A stretch of 64,000 nt of DNA. Origin: a bacterium. GTDB taxonomy: Bacteria; Bacillota; Clostridia; TANB77; RGIG9151. The notes below the pieces were generated by a model that was given only the letters and a program-made list of their open reading frames with translations, searched no databases and was not told where the DNA came from. Location: assembly GCA_963635575.1 (NCBI GenBank), contig CAVHFU010000001.1:54720-118719 (forward strand). The letters run 5' to 3'. Below, in pieces: positions 43,576 to 62,475 of this stretch (positions are counted from its first letter, which is position 1; the number at the start of each line of letters is the position of its first letter). Position numbers and translations under genes: made by a program.

Positions 43576-43648
43576 CCTATCTATCGCATCAGAAACAATA
43601 ACATATAAATCCTGAAGCGTTATAACATCGTACATTGTCTTGACATTA
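43576..43648. repeat. 73-bp direct repeat, copy 1 (orphan copy of the 3' end of the 45252..47339 gene)
   Basis: Identical over 73 nt to 45261-45333 (CCTATCTATCGCATCAGAAACAATAACATATAAATCCTGAAGCGTTATAACATCGTACATTGTCTTGACATTA). Confidence 0.7.
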
Positions 43649-43659
43649 GTGACACTCTA

Positions 43660-44496
43660 TCAGCCATATAGATTCAATATCATCTCCGATATTGTTTTTA
43701 TAACTTCGGAATATTGGATATTCCCCACGAAATAATTTTTGCTTTTAAATTGATTCCACATATTTTCCATCTCTTTACTTGTAGCTAAATTTTTAAGTTC
43801 TGTATCCACTTTTTCTTTCGAGAATATAGTCCCTCGTTTTTTACATGTCGAATCAAATGCCTCTCTATAAATATTCCATGAAAAGTCTAGTTTTTGGGCA
43901 ATTTCATATAAGTCATAAAAATCTCTCATTCTTGTATTTGCCAACCCTCGGCTTATAATTGTTTGAGATTTTTCAGCAAGAAGAGTCTCAATGTTATATG
44001 TATTTAAGGATATATTTCTTTCTTCAAACATTAAAGGATATTTATACTCTATTGCACCCATCGTAATAACATCATCCGTTGATACATCTATCTTTATAGG
44101 TTGTTTTAAATCTCCAAGCAATGCCTCTAAATGAATACGAATCCCAGGATAATCAAATTCATCCATGATTGTTTCTATATCTACAATTCTGAATGATATG
44201 TTATCTTCTACTGTTATTTCACATATTTCTAGTATTATTTCTCCCAATTTTTCTTTCGAAAGAGGAAGTGCTCTTACCGTAGCATCAATATCCATTGTTG
44301 TTCTTAAGTTTATTCCAATAAGTGAGGATACTAGCATCCCACCTTTAAGTACAAACCTTTCCTTATATTTTGATAATGAAATTCGTTCTAAAAAGCGTTC
44401 CATAAAAAATATTCTTATCATAGCTTGTGCTATCTTACTATCACCTTTAGAAATGTTCCTTACCTTTGCTTTAAGTCCGATAGCAGATTTTATCAT
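43660..44496 (-). CDS. AbiEii/AbiGii-family nucleotidyltransferase toxin (type IV TA / abortive infection)
   Basis: FVLKGGMLVSSL...RTTMDIDATV matches the GG...R-x-S/T-x-D-h-D nucleotidyltransferase motif of the AbiEii family. Overlaps the upstream partner by 4 nt. Confidence 0.7.
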   Translation of the reverse strand: MIKSAIGLKAKVRNISKGDSKIAQAMIRIFFMERFLERISLSKYKERFVLKGGMLVSSLIGINLRTTMDIDATVRALPLSKEKLGEIILEICEITVEDNISFRIVDIETIMDEFDYPGIRIHLEALLGDLKQPIKIDVSTDDVITMGAIEYKYPLMFEERNISLNTYNIETLLAEKSQTIISRGLANTRMRDFYDLYEIAQKLDFSWNIYREAFDSTCKKRGTIFSKEKVDTELKNLATSKEMENMWNQFKSKNYFVGNIQYSEVIKTISEMILNLYG

Positions 44497-45086
44497 AGCA
44501 TCACCTCAACATATTTCATTATTTCATCCCTTATTTTTAATTGCTCTCCGTACTGTATAAGTCTCGACATATTCTTTGACTTGTCACGCATGAATGTTTT
44601 CATAGCTGTTTGGAACTGTTGCACTTCAACATTTTTTCTGTTTTTAACAATATCGCAAATGCATCTTTCTTTATTATATGTCCTAACCATATTTCCGTAA
44701 TTTGTTTTAACTTCATCAACACCTAATCGATATATTGACTGTTTTTCCTGATGTATGATCACACCTTTATTTCTCAACCGCGTCTGATTAAAACGTGGGG
44801 GTACAGTAATATAAATATCTGTATACTCTCTGTCTAACATACCTTGCAAATACAAAGCTGTTTCTCCTGAATAAATAATATTCGGATTGCAAACTTGAAG
44901 AATATATAACTCATCCGCCCATGCATCCTGTGAAATGTAAATTCCTTTTGCTACTCTCTCTAAATGATTTTCAAACACAAATTTTGCCAAATATGCTCGT
45001 GAAATACCTGCTTTTTCGACTTGTGCTGTAAATAGATATCCATTATTCTCTTGTAACAATTCACTCATTTGCTCGTATTTATTCAT
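44493..45086 (-). CDS. AbiEi-family antitoxin/transcriptional regulator
   Basis: About 197 aa. N-terminal wHTH-like segment (GYLFTAQVEKAGISRAYLAKFV). Partner position upstream of AbiEii. RBS GGTGGTGA. Confidence 0.65.
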   Translation of the reverse strand: MNKYEQMSELLQENNGYLFTAQVEKAGISRAYLAKFVFENHLERVAKGIYISQDAWADELYILQVCNPNIIYSGETALYLQGMLDREYTDIYITVPPRFNQTRLRNKGVIIHQEKQSIYRLGVDEVKTNYGNMVRTYNKERCICDIVKNRKNVEVQQFQTAMKTFMRDKSKNMSRLIQYGEQLKIRDEIMKYVEVML

Positions 45087-45119
45087 AACTTCACCACCAC
45101 ACTATACAACAGTGTATAT

Positions 45120-45148
45120 ATTGTATTCATTATATACACCATTGTAAA
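45120..45148 (-). promoter_or_regulatory. Promoter of the abiEi-abiEii operon with a downstream inverted-repeat operator
   Basis: Minus strand TTTACA, 17-nt spacer, TACAAT. Inverted repeat TATACAACAGTGTATA (45103-45118) lies between -10 and the start codon. Confidence 0.4.
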
Positions 45149-45251
45149 CTTTTATTTTCCCAACTTATATGCCTTAGCATACTTACTATCAACATATTAT
45201 AACCAATTTAAAATAATACACTCAATCACAATGAGTTAATAACAAATTATT

Positions 45252-60976: not shown

Positions 60977-61025
60977 TTTCTAACAAAGAAACCGGCGGTA
61001 ATCATCATTACCACCGGTTTCTTTG
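60961..61025. repeat. About 65-bp direct repeat, copy A (3' end of the GT-like gene plus terminator hairpin)
   Basis: AAAACAAGGCATCTAATTTCTAACAAAGAAACCGGCGGTAATCATCATTACCACCGGTTTCTTTG. Matches 62411-62475 with 4 mismatches. Confidence 0.65.
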
Positions 61026-61026
61026 T
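60984..61026. terminator. Bidirectional terminator between convergent genes
   Basis: GAAACCGGCGGTAAT-CATC-ATTACCACCGGTTTC stem flanked by A-rich and T-rich runs. Confidence 0.55.
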
Positions 61027-61040
61027 TGGCCGACTCATTT

Positions 61041-61937
61041 TTATACTAGCTTTAATCTTTCATATGCAGGTAGTAAAATCTTTTCATATCTGCTGTAAAT
61101 ATACTTTTTATAAAACTTCCTATCTAATTCTGTTATATATGGTATACTTTCAATAAGACCTTCTATATCTATTTTAGGTATCATAGGAACAAGTTCCAAT
61201 AATGCTTTATTGCATCCTTCATACTCTAACTTATTAATAAAACTATAATAATTTATTTTTTCTCCATTTTCTTTTATTGCCGACTGTGGAAATTGAAAAA
61301 TTCTAGAATTTAACTCCTTTTCATCTGACAATACTTTCTTTTTTATACTTCCATCAGCTTGTGGTAAAAGGCAGCTACCGCAATCATATATAGGAGCAAT
61401 TTCTGACTTTTTATTCTTAGAGTCATATAAAAATCCCCAATTGCCGTTGTGTCTATCAAAGTTACCCAATAAAGCATCTACTATAAACATTCTCCAAAAA
61501 TGTTCTAATAAAATTTTAGATGGCACAAATCCTTGCTTATCAATTGTTTCAATTATATCAAATAGTTCCGTTCCCATTCCATTATGCTCCGAATCTATAA
61601 CTGTATTTTTTATAGAGCAAAAGTCATACAAAATTTTTCCATCCGCAGTAAAGTCTTCACATGCACAAACTATTTTTGTTTTATTACTTACTGTGAAAGT
61701 ACCAAGCAATGTGTTTTGAGCTTTAATACCCAGCATATTAAATATATTACATGCTATATGTTCGCTAATACAACTATTCGTATAAGACAACTCAGTAGGT
61801 TTCTTTTCAGCAGAGGGTGGAAATTTAAGCATATACTGTTTATCATTATATAAAATTGCTATCTTTTTTCCGTTTGCACCATTATACGCCTTTGTAAGTA
61901 CCCTTTCACAATTTGTAAAATCAATTTCTTTTTGCAT
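61041..61937 (-). CDS. HipA-like Ser/Thr kinase toxin (HipA C-terminal domain only)
   Basis: LLGNFDRHNGNWGFL aligns with the HipA catalytic-loop motif G-N-x-D-x-H-x-x-N. 298 aa. Confidence 0.55.
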   Translation of the reverse strand: MQKEIDFTNCERVLTKAYNGANGKKIAILYNDKQYMLKFPPSAEKKPTELSYTNSCISEHIACNIFNMLGIKAQNTLLGTFTVSNKTKIVCACEDFTADGKILYDFCSIKNTVIDSEHNGMGTELFDIIETIDKQGFVPSKILLEHFWRMFIVDALLGNFDRHNGNWGFLYDSKNKKSEIAPIYDCGSCLLPQADGSIKKKVLSDEKELNSRIFQFPQSAIKENGEKINYYSFINKLEYEGCNKALLELVPMIPKIDIEGLIESIPYITELDRKFYKKYIYSRYEKILLPAYERLKLV

Positions 61938-62354
61938 CTATTTTCCCCCCCATAAGAATTTATTTCTTAAATATTCGGCATGTTCATGCGTTATTTTACC
62001 ATCATCTATCTCAGCTATGTTTATACTGCTATATAATTCTCCCCATAAACAGTCAAGCAATGTTGACTTTTCTTTTACGCCTTTTTTATACTCATCCAAG
62101 TCATGTTGAAGGTATTTAGGAAGCCCTACTTCGTATGATTCTTCCATTTCTTTTTGCAAAATAGAATCGCGTACCAACATTTCCATATTAACATTAAGGG
62201 CTTTTGCTATTTTATATATAGTCTCAGCAGTGCATTTTTCTATTCTTGTTTTTCCACTACAAATATCAAATATCGTAGTATGCGGAATATTCGCTTCTAT
62301 CGCTAATCTATACTTAGTTATGCCATATTTTTGAAGCAATTCTACTAATCCCAT
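61938..62354 (-). CDS. HTH-domain protein, putative HipB-like antitoxin/regulator
   Basis: YGITKYRLAIEANIPHTTIFDICSGKTRIEKCTAETIYKIAKALNVNME HTH. Immediately upstream of and abutting the kinase gene. Confidence 0.5.
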   Translation of the reverse strand: MGLVELLQKYGITKYRLAIEANIPHTTIFDICSGKTRIEKCTAETIYKIAKALNVNMEMLVRDSILQKEMEESYEVGLPKYLQHDLDEYKKGVKEKSTLLDCLWGELYSSINIAEIDDGKITHEHAEYLRNKFLWGGK

Positions 62355-62410
62355 TTTTATCCCTCCTTATCTATAGTATATCGCCGTACCGACACAATGT
62401 CAATATTCCT

Positions 62411-62475
62411 AAAACAAGGCATCTAATTTCTAACAAAAAAATCGGCGGTAATCATCATTACCACCGGTTACTTTT
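62411..62475. repeat. About 65-bp direct repeat, copy B (now serving as the truB terminator)
   Basis: AAAACAAGGCATCTAATTTCTAACAAAAAAATCGGCGGTAATCATCATTACCACCGGTTACTTTT. Confidence 0.65.

Follow-up and report, generated by a model that had tools for sequence, protein, structure and literature searches.

Two toxin-antitoxin cassettes between long direct repeats

The window analysed here is a 64-kb stretch of a metagenome-assembled genome from an uncultured gut Clostridia lineage. It contains two toxin-antitoxin (TA) or defence cassettes, each lying between long direct repeats of 64-88 bp, here termed DR1 and DR2 (Table 1), as a sequence-only reading had proposed.

Table 1. Positions of the cassettes, their flanking repeats and the neighbouring host genes in the window
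Feature	Coordinates	Strand	Matches and remarks
Class-V aminotransferase gene	42437..43549	-	Pfam Aminotran_5 4.6e-73; downstream host neighbour of cassette 1
DR1 copy A	43561..43648	-	Non-functional relic: last 26 codons of the oxidoreductase gene, stop codon and 6 nt
Cassette 1 insert	43649..45245	-	1597 nt
AbiEii nucleotidyltransferase toxin gene	43660..44496	-	Pfam PF08843 9.6e-41; PADLOC AbiEii 1.7e-92
AbiEi antitoxin/transcriptional regulator gene	44493..45086	-	Pfam AbiEi_4, AbiEi_3_N; PADLOC AbiEi 3e-61
DR1 copy B	45246..45333	-	Functional oxidoreductase 3' end and 6 nt
FAD-dependent oxidoreductase gene	45252..47339	-	Pfam PF12831 6.7e-91; upstream host neighbour of cassette 1
414-aa ORF (family without match)	59732..60976	+	Host neighbour of cassette 2; L030 ortholog at 7893-9137
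DR2 copy A	60961..61024	+	Last 4 codons of the 414-aa ORF, stop codon and bidirectional terminator hairpin
Cassette 2 insert	61025..62410	-	1386 nt: HipA-like kinase, HTH partner, promoter
HipA_C-domain kinase-like toxin gene	61041..61937	-	298 aa; Pfam HipA_C 2.3e-11; PADLOC PDC-M03A 4.7e-28
HTH (Cro/C1-type) putative antitoxin/repressor gene	61938..62354	-	Pfam HTH_26, HTH_3
Cassette 2 promoter-like site	62375..62403	-	TTGACA-17-TATACT, 11/12 consensus matches, with operator-like sequence
DR2 copy B	62411..62474	+	Relic of the 414-aa ORF end with weakened hairpin
truB (tRNA pseudouridine synthase) gene	62479..63321	-	Pfam TruB_N 4e-59; host neighbour of cassette 2

The insert of cassette 1 is made up of a 9-nt spacer, the AbiEii and AbiEi genes, which overlap by 4 nt, a palindromic operator-like repeat (45105-45146), promoter-like sites at 45148-45120 and 45225-45196, and 87 nt of upstream DNA without a match. 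Positions 43658-45158 are the only part that is homologous (80-83% nucleotide identity) to AbiE modules in other contexts. Judged by sequence, the pair has the genes that define an AbiE system (type IV TA or abortive infection). The perfect 73-bp repeats described earlier around this pair were recovered as the core (43576-43648 and 45261-45333) of a repeat that extends to 88 nt, of which 84 positions are identical between the copies, and all four mismatches lie within the 15 nt closest to the stop codon. Mismatches clustered at one end would also be left by a homeologous crossover or expected of a hybrid att site. DR1 copy A has its own in-register stop codon (TAG) and lies directly next to the ribosome-binding site of the aminotransferase gene. 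It carries three private changes, clustered toward the stop codon, relative to both copy B and the ortholog in the related genome L003; at the fourth mismatch position copy A, copy B and L003 all differ, and the terminal bases of copy B are closer to the L003 ortholog than are those of copy A. DR1 is unstructured coding sequence (z = -0.3) with no recognisable core motif, and TAAT, a possible microhomology, stands at both ends of its unit. The description of the cassettes as inserted in gene 3' ends is wrong for cassette 1, as the insert begins 6 nt past the stop codon; it is the duplication that extends 82 nt back into the oxidoreductase gene.

The toxin candidate of cassette 2 lacks the HipA N-terminal domains, and HipA_C is the only HipA domain matched. 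It scores 29 against the NCBIfam YjjJ model, for which the cutoff is 401, and is matched best by the PADLOC candidate system PDC-M03A. The promoter-like site begins 7 nt inside the insert boundary and is kept in relatives of 75% identity (L084-L088), and the cassette has no terminator of its own. The adjacent 414-aa ORF has no match in Pfam, NCBIfam or PADLOC, leaving its earlier label of "glycosyltransferase-like" unsupported. The repeats around this module, put at roughly 65 bp from sequence inspection, are 64 nt long with three mismatches (61/64 identical) and do hold the last four codons and terminator hairpin of that ORF. The hairpin is intact at copy A (60982-61027; -19.6 kcal/mol, z = -9), and the hairpin of copy B (-8.2 kcal/mol, U-run of 7) is predicted still to serve as the truB terminator. 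No microhomology is present at the ends of DR2.

DR1 and DR2 are the sole long direct repeats in the 64 kb beyond paralogous genes and a tandem array: across the whole window, the remaining families of direct repeats of 35 nt or longer are a 12-nt tandem array, two paralogous gene pairs and a weak 35-nt pair. The core pattern of each repeat occurs exactly twice in the window, against an expectation of 0 from shuffles, and with two copies each in the window and one in relatives, DR1 and DR2 do not appear to belong to a dispersed repeat family. No tRNA was found in the 64-kb window, and Pfam scanning of the cassette genes, of the genes beside them and of most ORFs in the window returned no integrase or transposase domain; among the cassette genes, this bears out the earlier statement that neither cassette carries its own recombinase. 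Terminal inverted repeats are absent from the insert ends of both cassettes. A DNA transposon, IS or MITE was rejected on the lack of terminal inverted repeats and on the duplications of 64 and 88 nt, which, as had been pointed out, far exceed the target-site duplications of transposases (expected to be below about 15 bp). An integron cassette was rejected because DR1 is unstructured, the DR2 hairpin is a host terminator and no integrase was found in the ORFs scanned.

Since the window comes from a metagenome-assembled genome, contigs sharing a repeat, or an episome, could have been threaded artificially into the chromosome. An independent Logan assembly contig (L002) covers the entire HipA cassette with both repeats, and the same junctions recur in a genome from another sample (L083). 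A second Logan contig (L001) ends within the 73-nt DR1 core, as k = 31 predicts, so that the linkage of cassette 1 is based on a single assembly; nevertheless, the unique bases on either side of this core fit an integrated configuration, and 73 nt is below typical read length. An assembly artefact is therefore highly improbable.

Empty sites and the origin of the repeat copies

As judged by comparison with sequences from relatives, both cassettes are insertion polymorphisms. At site 2, the metagenome-assembled genome L030, which is approximately 94-95% identical to the window at the nucleotide level, precisely lacks the cassette and has one repeat copy, the empty site that the earlier reading had called for. 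In L030, truB and the 414-aa ORF are convergent, the two alignments to the window share 58 nt (L030 7846-7903), and the DR2 hairpin, the host terminator, is already present. L083 (96.4% nucleotide identity) contains cassette 2 with the same junctions as the window. Site 1 is polymorphic as well. In L008/L009 (approximately 76% nucleotide identity), where the oxidoreductase ortholog is 81% identical in amino acids, the aminotransferase gene directly follows the oxidoreductase gene with a single repeat copy; a precisely empty close relative was not found. In L003/L004 (95% amino acid identity), the site is occupied by an unrelated 194-aa gene with no repeat, which starts at the same point as cassette 1, after TAA-N2-TAAT. 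The flanks differ in their divergence from L003, with 90.7% identity on the oxidoreductase side and 95.8% on the aminotransferase side. A bare tandem duplication without an insert was not seen at either site in the relatives compared.

The two copies of each repeat share substitutions that their relatives lack. Eight positions of DR1 are the same in both copies and different from L003, and five positions of DR2 are the same in both copies and different from L030. The presence of lineage-specific substitutions in both copies indicates that the repeat is duplicated resident target DNA and not a site borne by an element. At position 9 of DR2, L030 and both L083 copies have A where both window copies have G, which suggests a change in both copies after the strains split, by gene conversion between them. 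The repeat copies thus evolve in concert, in a manner that points to gene conversion, and the confinement of the DR1 mismatches to the terminal 15 nt may likewise reflect gene conversion that homogenised the interior.

The architecture recurs, as had been anticipated, with a similar layout around a few other AbiE modules. Flanking repeats were found in 5 of 30 distinct AbiE contexts versus 7 of 378 random pseudo-modules, a modest enrichment (p = 0.005 without the window; approximately 0.1 when the ambiguous L115 and L120/121 are dropped). The repeats at other AbiE modules are 32, 57 and 255 nt long and unrelated in sequence, and those of 57 and 255 nt include the local terminator. Most AbiE and HipA relatives lack flanking repeats: AbiE modules with 80-83% nucleotide identity occupy other contexts repeat-free, and none of five other HipA-module contexts had them. 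Related AbiE modules being repeat-free, or flanked by unrelated repeats, the repeat does not belong to the module itself.

These observations bear on the earlier proposal of att-site or trans-mobilised integration. In a fuller form of it, the cassettes would be att-flanked miniature integrative elements (CIME-like elements or decayed islands) with the repeats as attL and attR and a tyrosine or serine recombinase encoded elsewhere; with no recombinase in cis, any such enzyme would act in trans. The repeats do overlap a gene 3' end, as in phages and ICEs that restore their target gene, and DR1 has a perfect core with divergence past it on one side. However, both copies carry the lineage-specific states of the resident target, these sequences are missing from related AbiE and HipA modules, whose own repeats, where present, are unrelated and of variable length, DR1 offers neither secondary structure nor a core motif, and no integrase was found in those window ORFs that were scanned. 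The reading would also call for a separate, unrelated att site for each of two unrelated cargos of 1.4-1.6 kb with nothing else in them. The proposal is therefore unsupported and is considered quite unlikely. The class of att-flanked element (IME, CIME or prophage remnant) was rejected for want of a conserved att core across module copies and of an integrase in the window.

Probable insertion with long target duplication

The earlier reading treated the pattern as unexplained, yet a category that fits it is on record: insertion with long target duplication (ILTD), a rare pattern described for restriction-modification (RM) genes (Nobusato 2000, Gene 259:99; Furuta, Abe & Kobayashi 2010, PMC2853133). 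ILTD was defined there by a complete module in an insert of less than 20 kb, a flanking direct repeat of more than 30 bp of which both copies align to a single copy in an insert-less relative, no mobility gene in or next to the insert, no tRNA target, and a repeat that is otherwise unique (PMC2853133). All of these features are found at both loci, with mobility genes, tRNA and uniqueness judged within the 64-kb window. The inserts comprise complete modules (AbiEi and AbiEii in one, the HTH and HipA-like genes in the other), and the single copy is provided by L030 for cassette 2 and by L008/L009 and L003/L004 for cassette 1. It is therefore probable that the cassettes entered core-gene junctions by recombinase-independent ILTD, a term that names a pattern more than a pathway.

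By ILTD, each cassette would have entered as a minimal autonomous TA/Abi operon, with its own promoter and operator, an antitoxin gene, a toxin gene and little more. The target may have been opened at staggered points on its two strands, with 64 or 88 bp between them; alternatively, a replicating strand may have switched template and re-entered behind its exit point. Foreign DNA would then have been joined in and the interval copied on both sides. The duplication spares the host neighbours: the oxidoreductase retains its full reading frame and the aminotransferase its native upstream context, and the 414-aa ORF and truB each retain a terminator, one of which the HipA operon borrows. Presumably, these insertions survived because both host neighbours were left intact. 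After insertion, the TA pair, its defence function or both may favour retention, and the direct repeats may interact by gene conversion. In principle, the repeats could also allow precise excision, circularisation, re-integration by homologous recombination, or amplification.

A different order of events is the alternative pathway discussed for rRNA operons (PMC3457768): a short tandem duplication of the junction would come first, and recombination with a diverged allele would later put foreign DNA in place of, or into, its inner part. Formally, each locus reads as a tandem duplication whose novel joint is filled by 1.4-1.6 kb of DNA, and the TAAT at both ends of the DR1 unit could have served as microhomology. 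Each of the two loci would have to have undergone two rare events, no relative has the insert-less intermediate, and the ends of DR2 lack microhomology, so that this order is very improbable.

Alternatively, the duplication may be older and have arisen in another strain, the cassette having been acquired from a conspecific donor by homologous recombination, either as a circular repeat-plus-cassette integrating Campbell-style through 64-88 bp of homology or by exchange of a repeat-cassette-repeat allele in the flanks. The mismatch patterns fit a crossover inside the repeat, the left arm of DR2 copy A is of resident type, as is the right flank of copy B, and the unequal identity of the site 1 flanks to L003 hints at recombination tracts. 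The cargo of site 1 also differs among sister lineages, as in the minimal mobile elements of Neisseria. The identical junctions of L083 and the window are, however, consistent with vertical inheritance of one event. Transfer from a donor is judged unlikely for these loci; being silent on the first duplication, it explains spread and is compatible with ILTD as the origin.

Comparison with known systems

Site-specific integration in gene 3' ends is known from phages e14 and 21 in icd and from ICEs and CIMEs at the 3' ends of fda or tRNA genes. The present loci resemble these in that the repeats include a host gene 3' end, the gene is intact and a pseudo-3'-end relic lies on the far side. Elements of this kind carry or depend on an integrase, share a defined core and supply a 3' end of their own, whereas here both copies are resident-derived, no integrase turned up in the window ORFs scanned and other copies of the modules lack the sequence. 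Integron cassettes and Xer-dependent pdif modules with TA genes are likewise small, recombinase-less and moved in trans; their boundaries are conserved attC or dif-like sites, the targets of IntI or XerCD. In contrast, no conserved sites bound the present cassettes, and DR1 is unstructured coding sequence.

Neisseria minimal mobile elements (Saunders & Snyder 2002), as they are presented where cited in PMC1538595, share with site 1 a fixed junction with varying cargo (here AbiE, the 194-aa gene or nothing), an absence of mobility genes and cargo presumably exchanged by flank homology. In that account, unlike here, they are defined by conserved-flank exchange, without target duplication.

The closest likeness is to the ILTD of RM systems (PMC2853133), in which a small addiction module without a mobility gene lies between core genes. 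The direct repeats of RM ILTD are tens to hundreds of bp long, align to a single copy in an insert-less related genome, are unique in the genome (here, within the 64 kb), vary in length and sometimes lie over a gene 3' end, as in the 46-bp repeats that overlap 15 bp of HI0105 (PMC2853133). The cargo here differs, comprising type IV (AbiE) and HipA-like TA/defence modules in an uncultured gut Clostridia host. A 2013 review from the same group credits ILTD to RM systems only (PMC3874152), and in the literature located, ILTD is described for RM systems and not for classical TA modules. The movement of chromosomal TA and small defence modules off recognisable mobile elements is still poorly understood, and the two loci, with an empty site in support, are clean cases of TA/Abi entry between core genes accompanied by target duplications of 64-88 bp. 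Potentially excisable or amplifiable cassettes bear on the turnover of defence repertoires between close gut strains; the practical value is modest, this being a well-defined case that reveals no new mechanism.

A wider and doubtful proposition is that ILTD serves addiction and defence operons generally as a way in, whatever the cargo: a process of the host, or one linked to competence, would paste modules, from promoter to stop, at junctions between genes and copy 30-250 bp of target, and ILTD would not be a side effect of restriction cleavage. If this were true, TA/Abi modules would be recombinase-less mobile elements whose self-made repeats support excision, circularisation, re-integration and amplification. 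The published hypothesis ties ILTD to DNA breakage by the restriction enzyme (PMC2853133). The toxins here, unlike those of RM systems, are a nucleotidyltransferase and a kinase, and the same scar around non-nuclease toxins weakens the attribution to restriction breaks and points to a process on the side of the host or of DNA uptake.

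Junctions and content of the two inserts

Direct-repeat detection over 42.5-63.5 kb returned two pairs, DR1 (88 nt, 95% identity, spacing 1685 nt) and DR2 (64 nt, 95% identity, spacing 1450 nt), which bracket the AbiEi/AbiEii insert (cassette 1) and the HTH/HipA-like insert (cassette 2), respectively. Pieces of DR1 (44 nt) and DR2 (27 nt) are each present exactly twice in the window and in none of 100 shuffles, and the sequence-only reading, which placed long direct repeats around both cassettes, holds without statistical ambiguity. Apart from these, the full 64 kb has as its only direct-repeat families of 35 nt or more a 12-nt coding tandem array, two pairs of adjacent paralogous genes and one weak 35-nt pair; DR1 and DR2 therefore stand alone among the long direct repeats outside these classes, and they bracket exactly the two toxin-antitoxin-like operons. 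Tandem paralogues at 45252-47339 and 47349-49313 encode FAD-dependent oxidoreductases that are 71-78% identical at the nucleotide level in blocks, a pair that all relatives keep next to genes for a TM1266-like regulator and an NfeD-like protease, and those at 26005-28401 and 28420-30906 are ORFs of about 800 aa.

Features of the two cassettes and their neighbours (window coordinates)
Feature	Coordinates	Strand	Evidence or remarks
DR1 copy A (relic)	43561-43648
DR1 copy B (functional)	45246-45333
DR2 copy A (intact)	60961-61024
DR2 copy B (relic)	62411-62474
AbiEii	43660-44496	-	Pfam 9.6e-41; PADLOC 1.7e-92
AbiEi	44493-45086	-	PADLOC 3e-61
Cassette 1 promoter-like site	45148-45120		TTTACA-17-TACAAT; adjoins 19-nt-arm palindrome
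Class-V aminotransferase, cassette 1 neighbour	42437-43549
FAD-dependent oxidoreductase, cassette 1 neighbour	45252-47339
HipA_C-only kinase-like protein	61041-61937	-	Pfam 2.3e-11; PADLOC candidate system PDC-M03A 4.7e-28
Cro/C1-type HTH protein	61938-62354	-	Pfam HTH_26, HTH_3
Cassette 2 promoter-like site	62403-62375		TTGACA-17-TATACT
414-aa ORF, cassette 2 neighbour	59732-60976
TruB, cassette 2 neighbour	62479-63321

Each insert holds two genes and a promoter, and nothing else. A good sigma-70-like predicted promoter lies just within the upstream boundary of both inserts, and neither has a terminator of its own. Insert GC is ~30-32% vs 30-40% in the surrounding DNA, and composition is hence not diagnostic. 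The label 'glycosyltransferase-like', given to the 414-aa neighbour of cassette 2 in the sequence-only reading, is unsupported, because this ORF has no match in Pfam, NCBIfam or PADLOC.

Mobility functions were not found: there are no inverted repeats at the insert termini, no tRNA in the window, and no integrase or transposase domains among the window ORFs scanned, which are ordinary housekeeping genes (frr, uppS, cdsA, rseP, lgt, HU, mazG, pilB/pilT-like ATPases, ribF, rplT and infC among them). Known RNA elements of Rfam are absent from 42000-64000, repeats included. When donors were sought by comparing the DNA of each insert with plasmids (PLSDB) and phages (INPHARED), no match was informative, and the relatives of the toxins in IMG/VR are only 38-61% identical.

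Read in gene orientation, the oxidoreductase end TAA-aataat is followed by the 1597-nt insert of cassette 1, by a relic made up of the final 26 oxidoreductase codons, a TAG stop and tttaat, and then by GGAGG and the aminotransferase ATG. Cassette 1 starts 6 nt past the oxidoreductase stop, the duplication extends 82 nt back into the coding region, and the host genes are uninterrupted. Cassette 2 lies within a convergent gene pair with one common bidirectional terminator; after insertion, each flanking gene has one terminator copy, and DR2 copy A also terminates the HipA-like operon. The relic stop TAG in DR1 (43567-43569) is in frame with the AbiEii stop (43660-43662), 93 nt apart, and AbiEii read-through would append a 30-residue tail from the relic, which is probably a coincidence.

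Features common to both junctions were sought. On examination for junction microhomology, the DR1 unit has TAAT at both its start and its end, and DR2 shows nothing comparable. Hairpin-targeted insertion is not common to both sites, as DR2 contains a strong hairpin and DR1 contains none. The motif CACAATG lies ~11 nt within the right junction of both cassettes and was rejected as a recombination signal: in cassette 2 it belongs to a conserved -35/operator region, TTGACATT(G/A)TGTCGG, that is also present in 75%-identical relatives.

Insertion polymorphism and history of the repeats

A TruB-based scan of species-representative genomes yielded a Hadza-derived Clostridia MAG (L030) with about 94-95% DNA identity to the window, in which truB (7001-7843) and the 414-aa ORF (7893-9137) converge directly. 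On L030, the window alignments 63340-62416 and 61023-59448 have 58 nt in common, at 7846-7903, and L030 thus has a precise empty site for cassette 2 with a single repeat copy, which bears out the empty site predicted by the sequence-only reading. The HipA module is absent from a more distant relative, L031. A contig from a second sample (L083; 96.4% nucleotide identity over 3 kb) carries cassette 2 with junctions identical to those of the window, and so the insertion is older than the split between the two strains. An assembly artefact is highly improbable overall, and is essentially excluded for cassette 2 by L083 and by L002, an independent Logan contig that spans the whole cassette and both repeats.

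The same relatives differ from the window in other respects. L030 has a 148-aa NifU/IscU-like ORF (6531-7000) between a NifS-like aminotransferase and truB, in place of which the window has the remnant ATGGAAGTGATGAAAAACTGTG (63322-63348), in what looks like a clean nifU deletion in the window lineage. A ~240-nt element upstream of era in L030 (374-611) has two long imperfect inverted arms, AAAAGGGGCTGTAAAAAAACTC … GAGTTTTTTTACAGCCCCTTTT, and a copy in L083 (1-85) has taken the place of the hairpin half of DR2 copy B directly after ACAAAG; the element behaves like a terminator-targeting MITE, belongs to no Rfam family and is absent from the window. Between the cassettes, the 12-nt tandem array (57096-57253) encodes an SPSP/TSSP/KPDPEPEP linker in ORF 53992-57816 (-). 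This ORF encodes a surface protein of 1274 aa that has InlB B-repeat domains, and its orthologs have 1211 aa (L030) and 1053 aa (L083). SLH-domain genes beside it are merely 65-74% identical between strains, and the surface-protein block separating the two cassettes is fast-evolving.

A precisely empty site 1, the junction of cassette 1, was not found in a close relative. In L008/L009 (81% aa identity) the oxidoreductase gene is followed 73 nt on by the aminotransferase gene, and in L003/L004 (95% aa identity) site 1 holds an unrelated gene of 194 aa that has a terminator and a promoter of its own (L003 4932-5516; L004 4653-5237), inserted at the same point, after TAA-N2-TAAT, with no flanking repeat. 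Its product is a predicted membrane protein with no Pfam, NCBIfam or PADLOC match, and is a second distinct cargo at this oxidoreductase/aminotransferase hot spot.

DR1 has 8 positions that are alike in copies A and B yet unlike the outgroup L003, and DR2 has 5 positions that are alike in both copies yet unlike the outgroup L030. These shared states indicate that both copies come from the window's own lineage, and DR1 and DR2, judged by these substitutions, are target duplications; neither was brought in as a site on a foreign element. A history of tandem duplication, then replacement, is quite improbable. The 4 mismatches of DR1 all lie within 15 nt at the stop-codon end, leaving a perfect core of 73 nt, and the 3 mismatches of DR2 all fall at stem positions of the terminator hairpin. 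Private changes are confined in both repeats to the copy no longer needed for coding: DR1 copy A has 3, clustered around the relic stop (the fourth mismatch position differs in all three sequences), and DR2 copy B has two, in the stem. At position 9 of DR2, both window copies have G, and L030 and the two copies of L083 have A; a post-split substitution is therefore now present in both copies of one genome, which we read as evidence for gene conversion between DR2 copies 1.45 kb apart. Gene conversion would also explain the perfect interior of DR1 with its diverged edges.

Genomic contexts of related AbiE and HipA modules

The AbiE module (window 43658-45158) has 80-83% DNA identity to modules on other gut Clostridia contigs, which stand in at least two other contexts (VanY / AbiE / 274-aa ORF and Abhydrolase / AbiE / ATC_hydrolase), and none of these relatives has flanking repeats. 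HipA-module relatives in five other contexts likewise have none. These comparisons indicate that the flanking repeat is not a property of the module.

A survey covered 30 distinct contexts of AbiE modules, each with 400 nt or more of flank. In 5 of these (4 without the window), direct repeats of 30 nt or longer lay close by on both sides, vs 7 of 378 random 1.42-kb pseudo-modules (Fisher's test, p = 8e-4; 5e-3 without the window); the enrichment weakens to about p = 0.1 when only the two clean analogues are counted. The clean analogues are a 57-nt duplicated terminator (L156/158/159) and a 32-nt repeat (L109). Of the two ambiguous cases, that of L120/121 is a 255-nt unit of small ORF plus terminator, which itself occurs in multiple copies, and that of L115 is a weak palindromic 39-mer. 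All these repeats are related neither to one another nor to DR1 and vary in length, as expected of target duplications and contrary to expectation for an att site; the 57-nt and 255-nt repeats contain the local terminator. The att-site or trans-mobilised entry proposed in the sequence-only reading is unsupported, given that both copies of each window repeat come from the window's own lineage and that the repeats of other modules are unrelated, and att-type integration by a trans-acting recombinase encoded elsewhere in the genome is unlikely.

The closest AbiEii relative (84%; L078/L079, with the same arrangement in L080) lies in a complex locus, where an 85-nt direct repeat (L078 1218-1302 and 3917-4001; 73% identity) of ambiguous status flanks a 2.7-kb segment that also holds a 128-aa ORF and a glyoxalase-like fragment, with an 11-nt AATCGGGAGTT repeat at ORF starts. 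This locus may be an older or more complex case of the same type of event. The many 1.6-1.7 kb AbiE-homolog contigs were considered as repeat-bounded loops and rejected, as L081, one such contig, has no terminal overlap or repeat.

Contig L121 has a unit of ~250-400 nt (a small EG-x-x-EG-repeat-rich ORF plus terminator) with at least 4 occurrences within 5 kb around its AbiE module (3719-4297, 5878-6108, 6802-6981, 8017-8375 and 8730-8988), and these units look like a repeat array setting small cassettes apart. Four Logan contigs from four samples that carry a 75%-identical HipA module (L084, L086, L087 and L088) have a common first base, 162 nt upstream of the HTH gene, suggesting an assembly-graph branch (a variable junction or repeat) at the module's upstream boundary.

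Probable insertion with long target duplication

Both cassettes probably represent one-off, recombinase-independent insertions, one per site, that duplicated 64 or 88 bp of the target. Such insertions could result from staggered breakage with fill-in or from template switching with re-entry upstream, two routes that the data do not tell apart. Retention would favour insertions of this form, since the duplication preserves the two neighbouring genes together with their signals and the cargo serves addiction or defence. Arrival by homologous recombination, from a donor of the same species already carrying the structure, is a minor possibility, which explains spread only and is compatible with one-off insertion.

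The pattern falls into a category that has a name but is little known and mechanistically unsolved, insertion with long target duplication (ILTD), described by Furuta, Abe & Kobayashi 2010, who build on Nobusato et al. (PMC2853133). Their criteria include the absence of another mobile element, a target duplication of >30 bp, and repeats that align to a single copy in an insert-free genome, and both window cassettes agree with every criterion of that study. The published duplications span 46 to about 420 bp, some of them reaching into a neighbouring gene's 3' end; the authors did not settle the mechanism, suggested DNA breakage by the restriction enzyme and noted that the repeats permit amplification (PMC2853133). 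Of later papers, one from 2012 speaks of 'RM systems and other DNAs' (PMC3457768), and a 2013 review from the same group credits ILTD to restriction-modification (RM) systems only (PMC3874152). No report of ILTD of type II or type IV TA modules was found in the literature searched, and such reports may exist elsewhere. The three alternative states that site 1 takes among relatives also recall the minimal mobile element sites of Neisseria. What is new here is the cargo, which consists of non-nuclease TA/Abi modules, the host lineage, and the direct evidence of concerted repeat evolution.
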